Origin: Bdellovibrionota bacterium
Lineage (GTDB): Bacteria > Bdellovibrionota_C > UBA2361 > JBIKWN01
Reading direction: 5' to 3'
Length of the DNA: 64,000 nt
Assembly: GCA_044356295.1 (NCBI GenBank)
Contig: JBIKWN010000006.1
Location: 7,134 to 71,133 of the forward strand
The translations under genes were made by a program, and so were the position numbers. Shown here piece after piece: positions 10,364 through 59,579 of this stretch; position 1 is the first letter of the stretch, and each line of letters begins with the position of its first letter. The notes beneath the pieces are model-generated. The model was given only the letters and a program-made list of their open reading frames with translations. It was not told the DNA's origin and ran no database searches.

Positions 10364-11494
10364 ATGCAAACATATCAACTTAAATGGGAAAATAATTCTT
10401 GGAAAAGCCTAGACTTAAATAATGATAATCAAGAACCAAATATGATTCTTGTTTTTTCAGATAGAGCATCACTACAAAACGGCATTGGACTAAAAAAGAT
10501 TTGTGAAAAGTTTCCAAATTCTATTATAACTGGTTGCTCTACTGCCGGCGAAATTCAAGAAGATCGTGTTTATGATGAATCATTAGTTGCTACGGCAATT
10601 TATTTTGAAAAAACAAAAGTTCGGTCATCACGACAAACTATTCAGGCTGATAGTTTAGAGACAGGAAAGCTTCTAGCAAAACAAATCGATCCTAACGGAT
10701 TAAAGCATGTTATTGTTTTTTCAGATGGCCTTAAAGTAAACGGAAGTGAATTGGTTAAAGGACTCAATGAATATATTCCTTCGGATATTGTTGTGACTGG
10801 AGGCTTAGCTGCTGATGGAGGTATTTTTCATCAAACGCTTACAATATTCGATGGAGAAGTGAGAGATGATAGTGTTGTTGCAGTAGGATTCTATGGCGAT
10901 GCAATTGATATCCGTTACGGTTCGTTTGGTGGGTGGGATAGTTTTGGGCCAGAGCGTTACGTATCTAAATCAACTTCAAACATACTTTTTGAATTAGACG
11001 GTCAACCTGCATTAGACCTCTACAAAACCTACCTTGGTGAACATGCCGCTGGCTTGCCTGCCACAGGTTTACTTTTTCCTTTATGCATTAAAATTGAAGG
11101 ACAAGAAAATCTAATCGTTCGTACGATTTTGGCAGTTGACGAGGCTGCCAAGTCCATAACTTTTGCAGGAGACGTTCCACAAGGGTGTACTGCTAGGCTT
11201 ATGAAAGCAAATTTTGATAGGTTAATTGACGGTGCCATGGATGCTGCGCGTATCATTCAAAAAGCAGAACAAATAAAAGGGAAAGGTTTAGCTTTGTTAG
11301 TGAGCTGCGTAGGTAGAAAAATGGTCCTAGGGCAAAGGGTCGAAGATGAAGTTGATGCTGTTAGAGAAATTTTAGGTGCTAATTTTGCTACTACCGGCTT
11401 TTACTCATATGGAGAAATTGCTCCGTTTAGAATGGGCGAAAGGTGTGAATTACACAATCAGACCATGACAGTAACAACATTTCACGAAAAATGA
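10364..11494 (+). CDS. FIST-domain sensor protein
   Basis: 376 aa. FIST N and C domains. The C-terminal GFYSYGEIAP motif is typical of FIST_C. Confidence 0.75.
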   Translation: MQTYQLKWENNSWKSLDLNNDNQEPNMILVFSDRASLQNGIGLKKICEKFPNSIITGCSTAGEIQEDRVYDESLVATAIYFEKTKVRSSRQTIQADSLETGKLLAKQIDPNGLKHVIVFSDGLKVNGSELVKGLNEYIPSDIVVTGGLAADGGIFHQTLTIFDGEVRDDSVVAVGFYGDAIDIRYGSFGGWDSFGPERYVSKSTSNILFELDGQPALDLYKTYLGEHAAGLPATGLLFPLCIKIEGQENLIVRTILAVDEAAKSITFAGDVPQGCTARLMKANFDRLIDGAMDAARIIQKAEQIKGKGLALLVSCVGRKMVLGQRVEDEVDAVREILGANFATTGFYSYGEIAPFRMGERCELHNQTMTVTTFHEK

Positions 11495-11520
11495 GTATTA
11501 ACTAAATATCCCAATCAAAC

Positions 11521-13002
11521 ATGCATCCTCTACTTCGGCGACAACTTAAAAGAAATGGCTTATCTTTAGAGACGCTCAGTCCTGAAGTGAATGCATTGTT
11601 GCGCGATATAGAATCTGCCTACGAACAATCAGAGACTGATAGAAAGTTATTAGAAAGAAGCCTTGAACTGAGCTCTAAAGAGCTCATGACTCAAAATTCG
11701 GAAATGAGAGCGATTCTGTCCTCTTTCCCGGATATACTTGCAACTTCGGGCGGGTCGCTCAAAGACCATACTTTTGAAGAAATTGTTTCAAAGTATGTTC
11801 AAGAACTAATTAACTCTAGAGCAGAATTGGCTGAAGCAAAACAAGTAGTAGAATCGGCTCTAGCTTCTAGAGGAATATTCTTGGCGAACATGAGTCATGA
11901 AATACGGACTCCTTTGAATGGAATTTTAGGAATGATTGCTCTATTACTAGAGTCACACAATCTTTCTGAAGATCATAGATCGAATCTTTTTTTAGTCAAT
12001 CAGGCTGCGCAAGACTTATTACGAATCTTAAACGATATTCTTGATTTCTCTAAAATAGAGACCGGCAAAGTAGAACTTGAAATTCGCCCTATAAATCTTA
12101 AGGAGCTTTTTCATAGAATTAACAAATTACTTGAAGTTAAAGCAAGTGAGAAAAATATCAATTGCTGTTTAGAAATAATTGGGGAAAACCCTAATATACA
12201 AATTTGCGGAGACGATACACGGGTAGGACAAGTGCTGATGAACTTAATTAGCAACGCAATTAAATTTACTTCACAAAACGGGACAGTTTCTATAAAATAT
12301 TCATTCACCTACGACGACAATTATTGCAAAATAATTACGAGTATCCGTGACACAGGAATTGGAATTCCCGAGAATAAAATCCATGATATTTTTGATCCTT
12401 TCAGCCAAGCTGATCAAAGCATTACTCGAAAATTTGGAGGAACAGGGCTTGGTTTAAATATTTCTAGAATGCTAGCTAGATTAATGAATGGAGATATCGA
12501 GGTTGAATCTTCGTCATCGACTGGAACAACATTTATATTCACTGCTATTTTTAGCATTGTCGATAATCAATCTGGAACAATTGAAATCCCCACTATCAAA
12601 ACAAAATCACAATATATCAAAAATGCATTGATAGTTGAGGATAATCCTCTGAATCAACTACTAGCCAGAAGATTCCTTGAAAATCGAGGAATTGAAGTTA
12701 AAGTCGCAGAAAATGGACTCAAAGCACTAGACATTATTTTGCAAAATGAAGAATTAGAATCAAAATTTGATGTAATCCTTATGGACTGTCAAATGCCGGA
12801 ATTAGATGGATACGAAACGACTAAAAGAATTCGATTGTGGGAAAAGGAAAAGTCCATTTCACCCGTTTATATTGTTGCTTTAACAGCTAATGCTTTCCAA
12901 GAAGACAGAGAAAAATGTCTAAATGCAGGTATGGATGACTTTTTAACTAAACCTATAGTTGTGACTGAGCTAAATAGGGTTTTGTTACTTCGAAAATCTT
13001 AA
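11521..13002 (+). CDS. Hybrid sensor histidine kinase (HisKA + HATPase_c + C-terminal receiver)
   Basis: H-box MSHEIRTPLNGI. N, G1 and G2 boxes (NLISNAIKFT, DTGIGIP, GGTGLGLNISR). Receiver with DVILMDCQMPELDG and LTA..K. Confidence 0.9.
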   Translation: MHPLLRRQLKRNGLSLETLSPEVNALLRDIESAYEQSETDRKLLERSLELSSKELMTQNSEMRAILSSFPDILATSGGSLKDHTFEEIVSKYVQELINSRAELAEAKQVVESALASRGIFLANMSHEIRTPLNGILGMIALLLESHNLSEDHRSNLFLVNQAAQDLLRILNDILDFSKIETGKVELEIRPINLKELFHRINKLLEVKASEKNINCCLEIIGENPNIQICGDDTRVGQVLMNLISNAIKFTSQNGTVSIKYSFTYDDNYCKIITSIRDTGIGIPENKIHDIFDPFSQADQSITRKFGGTGLGLNISRMLARLMNGDIEVESSSSTGTTFIFTAIFSIVDNQSGTIEIPTIKTKSQYIKNALIVEDNPLNQLLARRFLENRGIEVKVAENGLKALDIILQNEELESKFDVILMDCQMPELDGYETTKRIRLWEKEKSISPVYIVALTANAFQEDREKCLNAGMDDFLTKPIVVTELNRVLLLRKS

Positions 13003-13022: not shown

Positions 13023-14870
13023 TTACGTTAATAATCGCAACGCCAATCCAGGTGATTGATTAGCTTGAGCGAGCACTGATGTTGCAACTTGCTGTGAAAT
13101 TTTCAATCGCGTTGCCTCTGCAACTTCGCTACTGACATCACTATCCATAATTCTAGAATGAGCCTCTTTGTAGTTGATACTCGTCGACTGTACAACATTT
13201 ATGACTGCTGCCGCGCGCGACATTGTTGCTCCAACTCGTCCTAGTGTTTGTGAGATGCTTTCAATTAACGTACGAGAATTATCCAAAGACTGTCTAGCTC
13301 CTTGTTGAGTGAGAATATAATTTTTTGCAAGGTAGTTAGTTTGGGCCCCGTTTCCATAATTAAGATCAAGACGTCCACCTGTCAGCGAAGCCACTATTAC
13401 ATCTTTGACCCCATCACCAGTAAAGTCTGCAATTAAATTTGCATCCGATAATACCCCAGAGCTGTAGGCCCAAGTTTGAGAAATCTTAAATGTTCCATCG
13501 CCGTTACCTAAAATAATTCCTGCACCTGAAAAGCCTGTAATTAAGTAATCAGCAAAACCGTCATTATTAATATCCTGGGACGTCATGTTAGCTAATTGAC
13601 CTATGCCAGAAAAATTTATAGTTGTGTTTGCTCTAAAAGTTCCATCGCCGTTTCCTCGTAGGAAATTTACAGTTCCACCTCCTGGGCCAATTACAACAAT
13701 GTCTAAATTGCCATCCCTATCAAAATCTTGGGCGACTGATGCACCAGATACACTATTAACAAAATAAGTGCTCATGGCTCGAAGTGTCCCGTTGGAATTC
13801 GCAAGAATAACTCCGATTTGATTGCTGGAATTATCAGAAAGTTGGATGTCATCTTTTCCATCGCCGTTAAAGTCACCAACTGAAAGGGCGACACCATTGA
13901 AGGATGTGGCATAGCTCACTGCTGCCCTAAATGTACCATTTCCATTTCCACTGAGAACACTAATTGCGTTACCACCTGATGCAACGAGGTCAGCTATTCC
14001 ATCGCCGTTTATATCTCCAGTAGAAACTGACGTAACCGTAAATCCTTGCGCGTAAGTAACTGCCGAGGCAAAAGTATCATTGCCATTATTCAAAGCAATT
14101 CGAATATTTGTCGTATGATTGTTAACCCAATCCAGTTTACCATCACCATTTACATCAATGAGGCTTGCACCAGAGGGACCAGGCGCACCATTAGCGAATA
14201 TCGTCACACCACTACTAAAAGATCCATCACCGTTTGATAAGAATATCTGACCGTAGATACTTAATAGATCAGCTCTTCCGTCGCGGTTGTAATCGATGGC
14301 GTTAAAACCTCGCTGATTCGCCATTGCTTGTGTACTTGTTCCTGTAAATGTTCCATCCCCTGCAGCTCCGTTGATTCCAGAACCTTGTAAATATAAAAGT
14401 GAATTATCAAGACCACTTCCGAATTGGAATCTTACCCCTTGGGAATCTACGGAACTTAATAATTTTATGCCATTAAATGATGTGATCGAAACTATTCTGT
14501 TAAATTCTTCTGTAAGCCTATCAGACTCTTGCTGCATTGATTTTCGCTGCGACAATGAAAAAGATCCGTTTGCTGCTTGCTCAGCTAATTCAGCTTGGCG
14601 TTGTGCAATTTCTGACAACCCTCCAAGAGTCCCCTGAACAATATTGAGCATACTAACGCCATCGTTAATATTACGTAGCCCCTGCGAAAAAATTCTTGTT
14701 GAAGCATTAAGCTCTAACGCGATAGCGAGTCCTGCTGCATCATCGGCTGCTTTATTAATTCTCTGCCCAGACGCAAGTCGTTCAGAGATCGAAGCAAGCT
14801 TATTCGAGCTTTGCTCAAGTCCCCGCTGCGCGGTTAAAGAACTGATATTACTGCCTAATGTTATAGCCAA
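13023..14870 (-). CDS. Flagellin-family protein with a central FG-GAP beta-propeller insertion
   Basis: N-terminus (M)AITLGSNISSLTAQRGLEQSSNKLASISERLASGQRINKAADDAAGLAIA is the flagellin N-domain. C-terminus AHSRIMDSDVSSEVAEATRLKISQQVATSVLAQANQSPGLALRLL is the flagellin C-domain. Between them lie about seven DxNGDGxxD / GNGDGTF FG-GAP-type repeats. The start codon is TTG (revcomp of caa at 14868-14870). Confidence 0.85.
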   Translation of the reverse strand: MAITLGSNISSLTAQRGLEQSSNKLASISERLASGQRINKAADDAAGLAIALELNASTRIFSQGLRNINDGVSMLNIVQGTLGGLSEIAQRQAELAEQAANGSFSLSQRKSMQQESDRLTEEFNRIVSITSFNGIKLLSSVDSQGVRFQFGSGLDNSLLYLQGSGINGAAGDGTFTGTSTQAMANQRGFNAIDYNRDGRADLLSIYGQIFLSNGDGSFSSGVTIFANGAPGPSGASLIDVNGDGKLDWVNNHTTNIRIALNNGNDTFASAVTYAQGFTVTSVSTGDINGDGIADLVASGGNAISVLSGNGNGTFRAAVSYATSFNGVALSVGDFNGDGKDDIQLSDNSSNQIGVILANSNGTLRAMSTYFVNSVSGASVAQDFDRDGNLDIVVIGPGGGTVNFLRGNGDGTFRANTTINFSGIGQLANMTSQDINNDGFADYLITGFSGAGIILGNGDGTFKISQTWAYSSGVLSDANLIADFTGDGVKDVIVASLTGGRLDLNYGNGAQTNYLAKNYILTQQGARQSLDNSRTLIESISQTLGRVGATMSRAAAVINVVQSTSINYKEAHSRIMDSDVSSEVAEATRLKISQQVATSVLAQANQSPGLALRLLT

Positions 14871-14895
14871 ACTTAAATGATACTCCTCATCTTCT

Positions 14896-14925
14896 TGATC
14901 GGCTTTTTTTGAATATTTCTAAAAT
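14896..14925 (-). promoter_or_regulatory. Sigma-28 (FliA)-like promoter upstream of the flagellin gene
   Basis: Minus strand reads tTAGAaatattcaaaaaaaGCCGATCA. This gives a -10 of GCCGATCA against the consensus GCCGATAA, with a TAAA-like TAGA about 14 nt upstream. It lies about 25-55 nt upstream of the TTG start. Confidence 0.45.
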
Positions 14926-17135: not shown

Positions 17136-17621
17136 CTAATCCCTAAAATTCGTAAACTGCAATTCAATATCCTTAACTTCAGAGCGCAAAAACTGAATCA
17201 CTGCTTGCAGATCGTCCCTCTTCTTACCCATTATCCGTAATTGATTGCCCTGAATCTGAGAATTCACCTTCACTTTTTGACCTTTAATAAGTTTATTAAC
17301 TTTTTTCAGATCGTCATCACATAATCCCTGTTTGATCAATACTTCTTGTTTAATTGTATCGCCTCCGGCAGGGAATGGATCTTTAAATTCTACAGACTTC
17401 AAACTGACTTTCCGTTTTGCAAGTTTTTCCATCAACATCGTCTGCACTGCACTTAAACGCATCTGGTCATCAGCGTGGACATTAATCTGTTCTTCAACAA
17501 GTTCAACAGTAACGTTGGTTCCCTTAAAATCATACCGAGTTGCAATTTCTCGCTGCACCTGATCAACCGCATTACGAACTTCTTGCATATCAACTTCTGA
17601 AACGACATCAAAGGAAGGCAT
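17136..17621 (-). CDS. yajQ: YajQ-family (UPF0234) nucleotide-binding protein
   Basis: MPSFDVVSEVDMQEVRNAVDQVQREIATRYDFKG is the characteristic YajQ N-terminus. The start is set at the MPSF methionine; the track ORF begins 17 codons earlier. Confidence 0.8.
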   Translation of the reverse strand: MPSFDVVSEVDMQEVRNAVDQVQREIATRYDFKGTNVTVELVEEQINVHADDQMRLSAVQTMLMEKLAKRKVSLKSVEFKDPFPAGGDTIKQEVLIKQGLCDDDLKKVNKLIKGQKVKVNSQIQGNQLRIMGKKRDDLQAVIQFLRSEVKDIELQFTNFRD

Positions 17622-17761
17622 ACTCATATTCTCCAAAAAATTTTCATCTGGACTAGAAAAGCCAGAAGTCAATTAAATCTAAACATCTTTTATACCAAGA
17701 AAATGAGTTTCTGGTCGAATTTCTTTACCAACGAAATAAAAACAGGTAGCGTCATTTAAGA

Positions 17762-53909: not shown

Positions 53910-55190
53910 ATGGCAAACAGCAAACAAACCGTTTCACACGTCTATTATGAAGTTGGAAGTGAGCTCCTCGCTAAACCAACTGCATTAACTCAACTTATTG
54001 AAGGAAGTGATGCTAGAACTACAATCGTATTTTGCAATTCAGCATCTGATACTGACCTCGTCGAAGTGCTACTTAAAAAACGTGGTGTTTCTGCTCAGAA
54101 ACTTATCGGCTCTGTAAGCCCAGAGAAAATCGCTCGTACTATTGAACAATTAAACAGCGGCGAAATTACAACAATTGTTGCAACTGATGCTTCTGCAAAA
54201 AATATCCCAATCGACTCTTTTAATCTTCTTATTAGCTATACCTCACCTACAGATGGTGATACTTATAAAAATCGATATGCTTCTGAAGATGGTTTAAAAA
54301 ACTTGTTAACAATTGCAACACTTGTAAGTCCTAATGATGCAGGTAACTTTGAAATCGTACAGCAAGCATTAGATGGTAAAATCACTAAAGCAGATCTTCC
54401 AACTGCTGATACATTACAAAAAGCAAAACTCAATCGAATCAAAGCTCAAGCACAAACTAAAACTGGTGCTGAAGAGAAGTATAAAGCTCTTATCGAAGCA
54501 ATCTTAGCAGATAAAGAAAAAGGATTGGTTATTGGATACTTGCTCGCTAACACTTTAGAAGTACTTCCTTCTCTTCAAGCTGCCCAGTCACGTGAAGAAG
54601 AGCATTACGACGATGAAGATGCTCAACCAAACTTTAATAGCTCACATCATGATAGAAATGGTGGAAACCGATACGGAAATGGTCGAAATGATCGTAACGA
54701 CCGACGTGGCAACAACGACCGTGGCAGAAATAACGGAAGAAATACCCGAGACAATCGTGGTGGACGACAACAATTTAATGACGCAGGTGATGATAGCGAA
54801 GCAAGTCTTCAAGCAAGAGAGGCAATGGCTCGAAATAAAAAACGTGCATTTACTCCTCCTCTGAAAGAAGCTCGAATTTACCTTGGTAAAGGGTCTGCTT
54901 CAGGAATCAGCGAAGCAACTATTAAAAAAATGGTTCAAGAACAAGGCGCGCTTACTGAAGGTGATGTTCGTCGTGTCATCGTTCGTAAGAACTATGCTTT
55001 CTTTGATGTACTTGAATCACAATCAGAAGACCTCATCAATAAAATTGATGGAACTTCATTGATGGCAAAAAAAGCAACTGTTATCTCTACACAGATTCGT
55101 GACCGAGGTGAAGATGACAATGAATTTGCTCCAACACTTGAAGAAGCAACTGCTCAGGCATCTGGTGGCATCGCTGCTAACGCCGAGTAG
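53910..55190 (+). CDS. DEAD-box helicase-related protein lacking the N-terminal ATPase domain: RecA2-like domain, R/N/D/G-rich linker and DbpA-like RNA-binding domain
   Basis: It begins exactly where helicase domain 2 begins: VSHVYYEV...TTIVFCNSASDTDLVEVLLKKRGVSAQKLIGSVSPEKIARTIEQLNSGEITTIVATDASAKNIPIDSFNLLISY. Motif VI is degenerate (YKNRYASEDG in place of HRIGRTGRAG). The C-terminus ARIYLGKGSASGISEATIKKMVQEQGAL...VRRVIVRKNYAFFDV resembles the DbpA RBD. Confidence 0.65.
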   Translation: MANSKQTVSHVYYEVGSELLAKPTALTQLIEGSDARTTIVFCNSASDTDLVEVLLKKRGVSAQKLIGSVSPEKIARTIEQLNSGEITTIVATDASAKNIPIDSFNLLISYTSPTDGDTYKNRYASEDGLKNLLTIATLVSPNDAGNFEIVQQALDGKITKADLPTADTLQKAKLNRIKAQAQTKTGAEEKYKALIEAILADKEKGLVIGYLLANTLEVLPSLQAAQSREEEHYDDEDAQPNFNSSHHDRNGGNRYGNGRNDRNDRRGNNDRGRNNGRNTRDNRGGRQQFNDAGDDSEASLQAREAMARNKKRAFTPPLKEARIYLGKGSASGISEATIKKMVQEQGALTEGDVRRVIVRKNYAFFDVLESQSEDLINKIDGTSLMAKKATVISTQIRDRGEDDNEFAPTLEEATAQASGGIAANAE

Positions 55191-56859
55191 ATCTTTTCTT
55201 TAATGAACTAAATGCACTCTTGATAGCATTCAAGAGTGCTTTTGATGATTGGCTTGTTTTTTTCGAAATTGAATCGAGAGCTACATTCTTTGTTAAAGAC
55301 CCTGAAGAGTCTAATTCACACTCGTACTCACCATAAAACGATAGAAAACTTCCTCTAGACCGTGGATCTCTTAAACCAGCTAATCGAATTATTGATGTTG
55401 GATTACTTGGTGAGAATCTATAAATTTCTGAGCCTTGTCCGTTTCTTCTCGCGGCACCGTATAAGACAACCTCACAACCAGATTGCACTTCACTAACATT
55501 GATTTTTAAAGTCAGCGATCCAGATCGAGACACTGAAGCTCCAAGAGAGATTGAACCAGCAGACTCATTTGGATTATCTGGACCAGGTGTTACTGTTGGT
55601 ACTGGACTCGGTGTTACTCCGTCTGATGGATTATTATCTACATCAAAGCACGACGGAGAAGAATTTAAATGATTTACTACGTCGGCAATACTCGCTGCAG
55701 AAAAATAGGTGCTGCCTGGAATATTTATGTAAGGCGCCATTAAACTCGATCCATCAGTTGTATCATGTCCAGCACCAAAGTTGTGCCCAATTTCGTGTGC
55801 AACTATTGAAGCATCAGCTGCAGGATGGAATTTTTGAGTTATACCAAAAGAGTAATCTTGGTTACTACAAACGACACCAACCCAAGCAAGACCAATAACA
55901 CCACCATCAAAGTCTTTCCCTGAAAATAAATGATATAAATCTGCTTGACCGAGTTGGTTATTATTTAATGTATAATTTTTAAATGATCCTAACAGCGTAC
56001 CAGAATTTGTACTGTTGAAAGGATTACCCACTGAAGATGAAAATCCATGTTGAGCTGAAATGACCAGTCGAATTCCTAATTGATTTTGATAAATTGCACT
56101 TGCTGCTGCTACAAGTGTTGCAATTTGCGCATTCGAATTAGCGCCGTATGTTTCATACCATTGTGGGTCAAATTCCGTTGCTATAGTAGCGTACTGCGGA
56201 TTTGATGGGCTAATCTCTCTTGAAGCGACAGCTTGAGGCTCCATCTGTGAACTTGAACGAGCTTGCTCTTGTTGTTCCATAGCAGCAGTTTGATGATCAT
56301 TATCGTGATTATCATTTCCACATGCTAATTCTTTCAGGGCAACAGTTGGAACAGATGATACCTTTGCATCTTTAAGTTGATGACCACTAATATAAGACTT
56401 AAGATAAAGTGCTCTACCCTTACCACGTGAAGCGTTCATGATTAAGTGCAAAACTGGTTTCCCATTCTTGGTTTTGCTATAGATACTGCCACCGAGAGAT
56501 AACTTCTTTCCATTTGAGCGAGCATACCCTTCAACAAGGGCGATATCTTTATCATCTTTCTTTGAAAATCCAGAATAATCTTGAATCGATGAATCCCAAG
56601 ATTTAAAAGTAATTTTATTTAAATAGATTGAATATCTTCCTGAACCTACAATGTGCGCTGAAAGCCTAATAGATTTTTTTAAATTTGAAAGTAACGGATT
56701 ACTTCTTCTGTGACTACCATCCTTAACTTCTGAAGCAATAAGCCTTAATCCATCAGTATCACCACTTATATTTGTTCTATACGGTGAAGCGTGGGCTGAA
56801 GATAAAGAAATCACTATTCCTAAAGCAATTCCAATTATATGGGAAACTTCTTTCTGCAT
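55177..56859 (-). CDS. Secreted zinc metalloprotease, reprolysin/adamalysin (M12B)-like
   Basis: Signal peptide. VAHEIGHNFGAGHD fits HExxHxxGxxHD. Confidence 0.75.
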   Translation of the reverse strand: MQKEVSHIIGIALGIVISLSSAHASPYRTNISGDTDGLRLIASEVKDGSHRRSNPLLSNLKKSIRLSAHIVGSGRYSIYLNKITFKSWDSSIQDYSGFSKKDDKDIALVEGYARSNGKKLSLGGSIYSKTKNGKPVLHLIMNASRGKGRALYLKSYISGHQLKDAKVSSVPTVALKELACGNDNHDNDHQTAAMEQQEQARSSSQMEPQAVASREISPSNPQYATIATEFDPQWYETYGANSNAQIATLVAAASAIYQNQLGIRLVISAQHGFSSSVGNPFNSTNSGTLLGSFKNYTLNNNQLGQADLYHLFSGKDFDGGVIGLAWVGVVCSNQDYSFGITQKFHPAADASIVAHEIGHNFGAGHDTTDGSSLMAPYINIPGSTYFSAASIADVVNHLNSSPSCFDVDNNPSDGVTPSPVPTVTPGPDNPNESAGSISLGASVSRSGSLTLKINVSEVQSGCEVVLYGAARRNGQGSEIYRFSPSNPTSIIRLAGLRDPRSRGSFLSFYGEYECELDSSGSLTKNVALDSISKKTSQSSKALLNAIKSAFSSLKKRSTRR

Positions 56860-57001
56860 TAAAAAAAGCTAACGTCATTTCTTGTTCTGCAGTATAGGTT
56901 CTGTGTCTAAATCATAGTTTGAAAAATGCAAAAAATTTGTACCAACGGTATGTAAACATCGTACGAGAATTTCGTAGATGTAGCCTGTTCTGTCGATAAA
57001 G

Positions 57002-58387
57002 CTATTTTGAATTGTTTGAGACTTTTTTATTCACCGGCGGACTAGATTTTTTCTTATTAACTTTTTTCTTATTAACAGATTTCTTTACAGACTTAGGCTT
57101 AGCCCCTTTCGGTTTTTTCTTAACAACAACGGGCTCTGTAACAGGTTGTATTCTTTCTTTTAATAAACTCTTTTTGTATGCAGGATCATCTTTAACAAGT
57201 TCAGTAACTTTCCCTGTTGGAATACGTAATGTATACCCAGCTGGGATTGCTTTTCTTCCTGTAACGACTGGTTTTAATAATGCATAGTTAGCATCTATAA
57301 GAGCTTCAGTTGAAACTCCAAACGTTTTTGAAGCTTGCACCAGTGTGACTGGTTTTGTGACATGGTGATCTCTTACCGTAAGCTCAGGCAGTAGTGATAC
57401 GTTAGGGTAATACTTTCGATAATTATCATATATCTCGACTGCAGCAAGGAACTCTGGCCAAAAATTCTGAGAGGCAAATCCAAAAACTGGTTCACCTGAA
57501 GCTCGTTCAATCATTTCTGAAATATCATTTGTACCCGCTGCAACAGTTTTTTTATAGACACCGGAAACGCCGTGATTATAAGAAGTAACGGCTAGCCCCC
57601 AGTTCCCTAAAGATTTATATGCTTGTTTAAAATACTTAGCAGCTGCGCGAGTTGCAGTAAATGGATCTAACCTTTCATCTACGGTGCTTCCAACCATCAT
57701 AAATTTACGTGCAGTAGCAGGCATAAACTGCCAAATACCTGCCGCTCCAACAGAACTATAGGCAGTATAGTTAAAGGAGCTCTCTATAAATGGAAGCCGA
57801 GTCAGCTCAACTGGTAAATTCTCTTCTTCGATAAAGATTCTTTCTATTTGTGGTAAGTAACGACCTGTACGCCGAACTGCTTCTTCACATTTCTCTTTGA
57901 TACCTGTTTGTGTTCGTACCCAGTCATTATCAAGGACATCTTGGTATTTTTGTTTACCACTCGGCAAGGATTTCATTTGAGAAACAATATACTGCTCCAT
58001 CGAATTTCTTGGCGTCCCCGTCTTGGCAAGATTCTCAAGATAACCTTCAATTTCACCAACCTTTTCTGCCTCGATACGCTTCACAAGTGACTCATATCCA
58101 GCTGGACTAAGTTCTTCAGCCGCTTTGCTAAAATCTAAAACTTTAAATGAAATCTGAGGAAACCTTCTGTGATGTATGACCTTTTGATATTTTCCATACT
58201 TACCAAATATAGCTTTCCAGAAATCTACTCTACCTCGAAGGCGCTCTGGAGTTTCTAAGCCAGCAGGTCGAGAGTTATCTTTTTTGCGGGTCTGCGCACT
58301 ACAATCATCATTAATCAAAACAATAAAAGTAAATAAAAACGGTAAAAAAATCAGTGATATGATCCTAAAACTAAGAATTTTTTTCAT
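57002..58387 (-). CDS. Lytic transglycosylase (MltD-like: SLT domain + LysM-like domain + lysine-rich C-terminal tail)
   Basis: SLT motif ESSFNYTAYSSVGAAGIWQFMPATAR. LysM-like VTLVQASKTFGVSTEALIDAN. C-terminal KKKPKGAKPKSVKKSVNKKKVNKKK. Confidence 0.8.
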   Translation of the reverse strand: MKKILSFRIISLIFLPFLFTFIVLINDDCSAQTRKKDNSRPAGLETPERLRGRVDFWKAIFGKYGKYQKVIHHRRFPQISFKVLDFSKAAEELSPAGYESLVKRIEAEKVGEIEGYLENLAKTGTPRNSMEQYIVSQMKSLPSGKQKYQDVLDNDWVRTQTGIKEKCEEAVRRTGRYLPQIERIFIEEENLPVELTRLPFIESSFNYTAYSSVGAAGIWQFMPATARKFMMVGSTVDERLDPFTATRAAAKYFKQAYKSLGNWGLAVTSYNHGVSGVYKKTVAAGTNDISEMIERASGEPVFGFASQNFWPEFLAAVEIYDNYRKYYPNVSLLPELTVRDHHVTKPVTLVQASKTFGVSTEALIDANYALLKPVVTGRKAIPAGYTLRIPTGKVTELVKDDPAYKKSLLKERIQPVTEPVVVKKKPKGAKPKSVKKSVNKKKVNKKKSSPPVNKKVSNNSK

Positions 58388-59579
58388 AAACATAATTAAT
58401 TAAATTTTCTTCCCAGCGCTTTGCGCTTTCTGGATCATTTACGCCGTTCAAGATAATAACAACAATTTTATCCTTTTTACCCACTGTTCGCACAATACCA
58501 GCAATTGAAATAACTCCTGATAAAGACCCAGATTTACCACGAAAAAATATTTTGGGATTAAAATCCCTCGTTTTAAGAGTTCCGCTCATATTTCCAATAG
58601 ACAGAGAAGAAAGAAATTCAGAGGAAATATGTATACTACCCATAGCAAATTGTAATGTTTGGAATAATGCTTTTGGAGTTATCCGATTTTTTTCTGATAA
58701 CCCGGAACCATCGTACATTCGAACACCTTTGATGTTATGAGCTTGTAACCAAAGTTCAATACGTTTTAACCCCCGCGTAAATGAAAATAGAATTCTATCA
58801 TCCTTAGAATCTTTATTATCTGCTCCAAGTGCATATACCAAGCTATCTGCAAGCACATTTGTAGAATAGTGATTCAGATCAAAGAGGATCTTAGGAAGAG
58901 GCTCTGATAGGTGCCTATATACCAAGCGAGCATTCGTGCTAATAGATTGAAATGATATTTTAGGAGCCCCCATTCCAAGATCAAAGAGCACTTGCTTCCA
59001 AATAGATGCAAACTCCGCTTCTGGATTTTTAAGACTTTGATACTGAATGCTGCACTCATAAGGTGGATTTTTACATACTACTTTTTCTTGTGAATTGTAA
59101 TTAATTGAAGTGGCATGTGTTGTTGAATTATATGCCCTATCACCAGTTGTTTTTCGTTCTTCTTCATAGGAAGTACTATCAATTAGAAGAGTATCAACTG
59201 AGGATATACCTTGCGCTTTAAGCTTACGAACTATTTCATATACCTTTTCGGTTGTTAGAGTTGGGTCTCCTCCACCGCGAACCATGAGAACATTTTTATG
59301 ATTAATTTTTTCATAGTACATGTGAGTAAAAAATCTAAAATCATTCCCAAGTTGATCAAGAGCAACTACGGACGTGATAATTTTTTGAGTGCTGGCAGGT
59401 ATGAGCTCTTCCTCGGCAAGTGAAGCATCATCAAAATGAGCTTCATTGGAATCTGCAACAACTAAACCAACTTGAGATGCTGGAGCCTTTTTTATTAATT
59501 GCTCAACTGTTTGAGCTTCACAAACAGCTACAACACTGAAACCGATGAAAAGTACCAGTGAAATAATAGAGCGGTTCAT
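58371..59579 (-). CDS. dacB: D-alanyl-D-alanine carboxypeptidase/endopeptidase, PBP4 (DacB) family
   Basis: Signal peptide from MNRSIISLV. SxxK motif PASTQKIIT. The start is set at 59579, which gives a 1-nt overlap with the ferredoxin stop. Confidence 0.8.
   Translation of the reverse strand: MNRSIISLVLFIGFSVVAVCEAQTVEQLIKKAPASQVGLVVADSNEAHFDDASLAEEELIPASTQKIITSVVALDQLGNDFRFFTHMYYEKINHKNVLMVRGGGDPTLTTEKVYEIVRKLKAQGISSVDTLLIDSTSYEEERKTTGDRAYNSTTHATSINYNSQEKVVCKNPPYECSIQYQSLKNPEAEFASIWKQVLFDLGMGAPKISFQSISTNARLVYRHLSEPLPKILFDLNHYSTNVLADSLVYALGADNKDSKDDRILFSFTRGLKRIELWLQAHNIKGVRMYDGSGLSEKNRITPKALFQTLQFAMGSIHISSEFLSSLSIGNMSGTLKTRDFNPKIFFRGKSGSLSGVISIAGIVRTVGKKDKIVVIILNGVNDPESAKRWEENLINYVYEKNS

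Follow-up and report, generated by a model that had tools for sequence, protein, structure and literature searches.

A flagellin with a seven-bladed FG-GAP propeller as its outer region in a Bdellovibrionota bacterium

Introduction

Does a flagellin whose variable middle has become a β-propeller still build filaments, and what would the propeller do there? The question is raised by a gene of a Bdellovibrionota bacterium, encoded on the reverse strand at 13023..14870 of a 64,000-nucleotide stretch of DNA (contig JBIKWN010000006.1, positions 7,134 to 71,133; hereafter the window). The gene is complete in the list of open reading frames (ORFs), and its product of 615 residues contains Flagellin_N, seven FG-GAP_3 stretches and Flagellin_C as judged by Pfam. 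A first-pass annotation made from the DNA letters had read it as a flagellin carrying an FG-GAP propeller, and had implied that it was unique of its kind. The outer domains of flagellins are a known hot spot for gaining functions, and very few of them have been linked to a function.

Results

The two ends of the protein are those of a flagellin

The first-pass annotation recognized D0 and D1 segments of a flagellin at both termini, and profile searches bear this out over nearly the whole of both Pfam models. Flagellin_N (PF00669) matches residues 7-140 (E=2.7e-31, 108.9 bits against a cutoff of 26.6, profile positions 3-136 of 139), and Flagellin_C (PF00700) matches residues 533-614 (E=6.2e-14, 52.5 bits against a cutoff of 23, profile positions 5-86 of 86). 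Residues 1-140 (14451..14870, on the reverse strand like all parts of the gene) make up the N-terminal D0 and D1 helices, which the structure model places at 6-33 (ND0), 45-100 (ND1a) and 106-129 (ND1b). Residues 141-170 (14361..14450) comprise the D1 β-hairpin (VRFQFGSG...LLYLQG, with model strands at 146-149 and 157-160) and the entry to the propeller, and they align with the FQVGA hairpin region of solved flagellins. At the other end, residues 522-615 (13026..13307) form the C-terminal D1 and D0 helices, modeled as a helix over 522-614 and ending in ...LAQANQSPGLALRLLT; they align to the C-termini of solved flagellins.

The best matches in NCBIfam and among the PDB sequences are all flagellins, and they are aligned from the first residue to the last. 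Indeed, the PDB sequence alignment pairs residue 1 of the protein (MAITLGSNISSL...) with residue 1 of solved flagellins. Every model of the curated NCBIfam flagellin subfamilies (LafA, polar flagellin, FliC/FljB and others) stays below its cutoff and matches the two termini only, the best of them, NF038071 (LafA), reaching 147.5 bits against a cutoff of 365. The protein is a flagellin outside all these curated subfamilies.

The structure prediction (predicted local distance difference test, pLDDT, 86; predicted template modeling score, pTM, 0.80) is in agreement with the first-pass annotation, giving the helix order of a flagellin around a β domain: ND0, ND1a, ND1b, hairpin, β domain and then CD1/CD0. 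The top Foldseek matches of the model are flagellar filament structures (9N59, 9AU6, 7SN4 and 9GNZ). In the Foldseek search of the PDB the flagellin matches cover the core only (template modeling score, TM, ~0.3), and among the matches listed none spans the propeller. The protein has no signal peptide. It also has no cysteine, as is the case for 77 of the 90 members of the family alignment described below.

The outer region is a seven-bladed FG-GAP propeller

Between the hairpin and the C-terminal helices, residues 171-511 (13338..14360) form the FG-GAP propeller that had been proposed in place of the hypervariable middle. FG-GAP_3 matches in seven stretches (E=1.6e-40) and FG-GAP in five (E=1.6e-19), and Pfam finds no WD40 match in the protein. 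All seven DxNGDGxxD-type motifs quoted in the first-pass annotation were recovered between residues 193 and 482, as Dx[ND]xDGxxD loops: DYNRDGRAD at 193, DVNGDGKLD at 239, DINGDGIAD at 286, DFNGDGKDD at 333, DFDRDGNLD at 382, DINNDGFAD at 433 and DFTGDGVKD at 482, with a loop-to-loop spacing of 46-51 residues. GNG(D/N)GTF turns lie at 308, 406 and 455, with degenerate copies in the remaining blades. The fold is a closed seven-bladed propeller, whose closing blade is probably made of two pieces, the 'GDGTF' segment on the N-terminal side (171-192) and the half-blade at the end (482-511). Judging from their motif, the seven loops would bind Ca2+.

The gene is intact and its repeats are old

The ORF opens with a TTG codon at 14870, the earliest start possible in its frame, and closes with the stop codon at 13023-13025. 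Its frame is uninterrupted, and its content of guanine and cytosine (GC) is that of the surroundings. The identical protein turns up again in NCBI GCA_041443045.1 and in Logan SRR11638223, two assemblies independent of each other, so the gene is not an assembly chimera; furthermore, the database protein P0001 is of equal length and 95% identical. No tandem repeat was found at the DNA level within the gene, and the blades are only 26-48% identical to one another at the protein level. The propeller repeats are therefore ancient, and a recent expansion is ruled out.

Upstream of the gene, a GAGGAG ribosome-binding site (14883-14888, reverse strand) can be read 12 nucleotides (nt) from the start, and a possible σ28 (FliA)-type promoter of the form TAGA-N14-GCCGATCA (14896..14921, reverse strand) 26 nt from it. 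Four homologues have similar TA(A/G)A-N14-16-(G/C)(C/G/T)CGAT(C/A)(T/A) motifs in their upstream DNA, and as a sign of late-flagellar regulation the shared motif is only suggestive. Scans for σ70 promoters and for terminators around the gene were uninformative.

The protein belongs to a large family with conserved ends and variable blades

The uniqueness implied by the first-pass annotation did not survive a homologue search of a database of 5.8 billion proteins, grouped into clusters at 90% identity, in which the best 120 matches were considered. At least ~85 of these, each a distinct cluster, are proteins of 593-656 residues with the order Flagellin_N, FG-GAP or FG-GAP_3, and Flagellin_C, aligned at 36-43% identity over 100% of the query. 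The match at rank 120 still scores 343 bits, and the family must therefore be bigger than these ~85 clusters. Its members appear in their sources as 'flagellin', 'flagellin-like hook-associated protein FlgL' or 'VCBS repeat-containing protein [Bdellovibrionales bacterium]', and those among the best 120 matches that carry an organism name come from metagenome-assembled genomes (MAGs) of Bdellovibrionota. Patterns of query-specific peptides also picked out full-length relatives in a set of species-representative genomes, namely in three MAGs, one assigned to Bdellovibrionales, one to Bdellovibrionota and one unclassified. To judge by these matches the protein is no one-off, and its family is a large, experimentally uncharacterized one in uncultured Bdellovibrio-like bacteria.

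We aligned 90 members of the family. The outer region measures 375-403 residues in all 90. The core has a mean identity of 50% to the query, the propeller one of 34%, and column conservation is 0.63-0.69 in the termini versus 0.46 in the propeller. Across the alignment the Asp residues of the Ca2+ loops are invariant and the GNGDGTF turns are conserved, and between these motifs lie ~20 residues per blade that are hypervariable. Alignment with the N-terminus of the query places the called start of one member, P0073 (L081:10001), seemingly 27 codons early, with the true start near L081:10082, and that of another, P0047 (L083:10001), seemingly 11 codons late, with the true start near L083:9968; the spread of lengths in the family is therefore in part an effect of gene calling.

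Residues 141-521 of the query (13308-14450, reverse strand, 381 residues) contain 33 Asp, one His and no Glu. Across the family the outer region is likewise poor in Glu (1.3%, compared with 5% in the core) and in Lys, and rich in Asp (9.1%). An enzymatic flagellin was considered and rejected, because the HExxH motif occurs in none of the 90 members and the outer region of the query has no Glu and a single His.

A relative encodes propeller flagellins together with short flagellins

Whether canonical short flagellins exist elsewhere in the genome had been left by the first-pass annotation as a question, and the answer differs between the window and a relative. No other flagellin came up when the N-terminal, middle and C-terminal parts of the protein were run by tblastn against the 64-kb window, whereas a 601-kb contig of the relative (L086) encodes two canonical flagellins of 287 residues. 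The same contig carries a propeller flagellin of ~880 residues and another of 637 residues (P0102), with the 656-residue P0073 ~45 kb away. The core of the query is 51% (N-terminal part) and 39% (C-terminal part) identical to the 287-residue flagellins, and since the flanking core aligns in this way, the propeller sits exactly at their ~60-residue linker.

On this contig, of which L081 is also a part, the two short flagellins stand in tandem within L086 3004-17405, and an SLT transglycosylase is found among the flagellin genes. Two more propeller flagellins, P0047 and P0022, are on other long contigs of the same sample. The ~880-residue relative (L086:3004-5721, reverse strand; contig k127_73338109, sample ERZ22682847) likely starts at a GTG codon and has flagellin termini and an FG-GAP propeller of six-to-seven repeats. 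Between ND1 and the propeller it carries an extra region of ~270 residues, a second outer domain, in which Pfam matches nothing and 'YYVWYTIDG / YIVWFDYEG'-like segments recur. Elsewhere in the family, one homologue directly follows a che operon and another lies 5 kb from fliD.

Neighboring genes

The neighbors of the flagellin are a convergent pair encoding a FIST protein and a hybrid histidine kinase, hypothetical genes, and a gene for a cyclic di-GMP-binding protein of the YajQ family. The FIST-domain sensor (376 residues) and, after it, the hybrid histidine kinase with its receiver domain (493 residues) occupy 10364-13002 of the forward strand; the kinase gene ends 20 nt from the stop codon of the flagellin, with no terminator-like hairpin between them. 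The YajQ gene (17136-17672, reverse strand) is 2.3 kb upstream of the flagellin, and another YajQ gene (L083:1-406, reverse strand) is ~9.6 kb upstream of the homologue P0047. For the propeller flagellin P0094 and for a polA homologue (P0128) alike, the longest contig is given as 25.5 kb, and the two may share one contig. The proximity of YajQ and polA to propeller flagellins could reflect a loose conserved synteny. No conserved partner gene emerged, the small ORFs beside the homologues being unrelated to the neighbors in the window and matching no family. The DNA polymerase I of the window is at most 53-55% identical to its named relatives, which are Oligoflexia and Bdellovibrionales MAGs, and this identifies the source as a Bdellovibrionota-like lineage that is uncultured.

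Farther along the window, a 426-residue ORF (53910-55190, forward strand) has Helicase_C (its residues 22-122) and the DbpA RNA-binding domain and no DEAD/helicase N-terminal domain, and this gene may be split, frameshifted or mis-started. At 55177-58393 (reverse strand), a reprolysin-like (M12B) zinc metallopeptidase of 560 residues adjoins an SLT lytic transglycosylase of 463 residues; both are of secreted-hydrolase types that would fit a predatory or surface-degrading lifestyle.

Discussion

We favor, with moderate confidence, the reading that the protein is a filament flagellin that displays its propeller, probably as a binding surface; within this reading, a specific adhesion or lectin activity has perhaps an even chance. 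The protein would be exported unfolded through the flagellar type III channel, in keeping with the lack of a signal peptide and of cysteine, and would polymerize through its conserved D0/D1 helices beneath the FliD cap. Its single outer domain would then fold outside the cell into the seven-bladed FG-GAP (integrin-alpha-like) propeller, stabilized by Ca2+ in the seven Dx[ND]xDGxxD loops, with extracellular Ca2+ probably helping the folding. The chain ends of such a propeller meet in one blade, which would allow it to sit as an insertion on the D1 hairpin. By analogy with flagellin topology, the propellers would stand on the outside of the filament, ~11 of them for every 5 nm of its length. The filament diameter is estimated at 18-20 nm, inside the range of known filaments, by a volume calculation that takes 381 residues, an axial rise of 4.7 Å per subunit, a core radius of 55-60 Å and a packing of 0.5-0.7.

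Since a conserved scaffold carries hypervariable loops, since there are several paralogues per genome, and since the propeller is akin to those of integrins and lectins, a variable surface module that binds ligands or glycans appears the most natural interpretation. The propeller would then most likely form an adhesive coat on the filament, whose surface and thickness it would also alter. Adhesion to prey or surfaces, which the first-pass annotation had suggested, is a plausible candidate function. The protein is probably a structural flagellin of an accessory or alternative kind, used beside short canonical flagellins. It may further be speculated that these Bdellovibrio-like bacteria, which may be predators, use the filament also as a polyvalent, Ca2+-dependent adhesin or lectin lined with thousands of integrin-like propellers, with paralogues that differ in their hypervariable blade loops conferring different specificities for prey or surface glycans, an extension that we consider rather unlikely. 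If true, the choice of flagellin would help to set attachment or prey range.

Several observations weigh against a displayed propeller that serves as a binding surface. Cultured Bdellovibrio have membrane-sheathed flagella; a sheath in this lineage as well would leave the propeller facing the sheath instead of the medium and would count against external adhesion. The likeness to lectins appears to rest mainly on the generic repeat scaffold. There is no flagellar gene in the 64 kb, where the 30 neighboring ORFs are housekeeping only according to Pfam, and the loose σ28 pattern has 4 matches in the window versus 2.2 expected, which is not significant alone. Furthermore, the terminal domains of the propeller flagellins are further from the Pfam consensus than those of the co-resident short flagellins (Flagellin_N 105-127 bits versus 135-139; Flagellin_C 43-67 bits versus 84-86), and these lower scores could point to a specialized role or to a role outside the filament.

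The more divergent ends would suit a flagellin-like protein for which the flagellar type III apparatus is an export route only, and which is released as a soluble adhesin or lectin or is confined to the tip or a junction, like Campylobacter FlaC. The short flagellins of the relative could then form the filament alone, and the gene indeed lies apart from flagellar loci in the window. However, flagellin genes are often dispersed in genomes, and the protein keeps every D0/D1 element intact along the whole of both profiles, the D1 hairpin and, at the C-terminus, the ...LAQANQ.P.LAL.LL motif among them. The termini are also the best-conserved part of the family, as would be expected if polymerization contacts are under selection, and we regard export without incorporation as quite improbable. 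Some chance, small but real, goes to a filament flagellin whose propeller has no ligand and works mechanically, by thickening or stiffening the filament, by forming an outer-domain lattice or contacting the sheath, and by altering supercoiling or performance in viscous or structured environments, while the hypervariable loops reflect escape from flagellotropic phages or grazers. The outer domains of solved filaments reportedly dimerize or build lattices, with consequences for motility in viscous media (PMC8931119 and PMC10256154). The uniform size of the outer region (375-403 residues in 90 members) suits a lattice-packing constraint, and selection for escape would equally be expected to leave a conserved scaffold with hypervariable surface loops. 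Yet several divergent paralogues per genome fit a diversified specificity better than a single mechanical role, and the FG-GAP propellers of characterized proteins (integrin alpha, PVL-type lectins, CRTAC1 and Tc toxins) are usually ligand-binding modules.

The identity of the protein as a flagellin is open to less doubt. A hook-associated junction protein of the FlgL/HAP3 type is highly improbable, although JGI calls several family members 'flagellin-like hook-associated protein FlgL' and FlgL too matches Flagellin_N. This label appears to be a generic family name that is given to flagellins as well, and the FlgL model TIGR02550 reaches 65.5 bits, below its cutoff of 127.2, over residues 9-123 only, whereas flagellin models reach 141-147 bits with both termini and Flagellin_C matches over its full length; here the profiles side with the first-pass annotation, which had preferred a flagellin to a FlgL-like protein. 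An artefact, either a chimeric assembly or a spurious fusion of flagellin with VCBS/FG-GAP sequence, could be suspected from the many non-flagellin FG-GAP/VCBS proteins whose match to the middle of the query is no worse than that of family members (33-41% identity, with ~50% of the query covered). This is effectively refuted by the identical protein in two independent assemblies, by the 95%-identical P0001 and ~85 further clusters of the same architecture and length, and by an uninterrupted reading frame with a GC content like that of its surroundings.

A filament flagellin that displays a propeller would be a good candidate for structural and functional study, without being a conceptual surprise. 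With its many members of uniform size, often multi-copy within Bdellovibrionota, the family provides a well-defined test case, both for how a repeat domain of ~380 residues folds after type III export and for whether the filaments of predatory or surface-associated bacteria are adhesive organelles. One consequence for annotation is that, in these MAGs, the names 'VCBS repeat-containing protein' and 'FlgL-like' stand for flagellins.

Comparison with known systems

The protein has the D0/D1 helical core in common with canonical flagellins (Salmonella FliC, 1UCU/3A5X; E. coli O157:H7, 7SN4; Geovibrio thiophilus, 9AU6), as well as their topology, with the ND1 hairpin before the outer region and CD1 after it. 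At ~380 residues its outer region is inside the known size range. Solved filaments have Ig-like, β-folium or other small outer domains, whereas this flagellin has one seven-bladed FG-GAP propeller.

Members of the integrin alpha/FG-GAP superfamily (ITFG2, CRTAC1 and the Tc-toxin TcB propeller) are only 12-17% identical to the query. Integrins have the Ca2+-loop motif in three or four blades; unlike integrin alpha, the query has it in all seven, is found inside a flagellin and is without a β-subunit partner. The similarity to propeller lectins (the GlcNAc-binding fungal PVL/PAL/AAL2 and the bacterial BP39L, CV39L and PLL) may come from the repeat scaffold alone. PVL-type lectins match residues 238-324 with E=1.8e-9 at 22-23% identity and a TM of 0.55, an overall similarity only, and a lectin activity of the query propeller is thus put forward as a hypothesis.

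We found no experimental work on propeller flagellins in the literature. The literature on flagellins with FG-GAP, VCBS or β-propeller domains yielded one relevant item: Fields et al. 2024 (PMC11532411), surveying outer domains that AlphaFold predicts for flagellins, list a propeller cluster, 'WD40-repeats' (#55), without describing it by sequence, taxonomy or function; nothing else relevant was found. The query is FG-GAP by sequence, with no WD40, and cluster #55 may or may not correspond to the FG-GAP flagellin family; the cluster is a further point against the uniqueness first implied. The general principle and a propeller cluster have already been reported computationally, and no established concept is changed. 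Co-opted functional outer domains include those of the peptidase flagellins (flagellinolysin, flagella_HEXXH) and a pectate-lyase-like cluster (PMC11532411). In such flagellins a complete, independently folding domain of a foreign protein family replaces the hypervariable region and is displayed thousandfold on the filament (PMC11532411), an arrangement that the query would share. Those flagellins are enzymes, whereas the query is without a catalytic signature and its insert would be a binding or scaffold propeller. It is thus a further member of a large, database-visible family, itself a case of the co-option of outer domains already known for flagellins.

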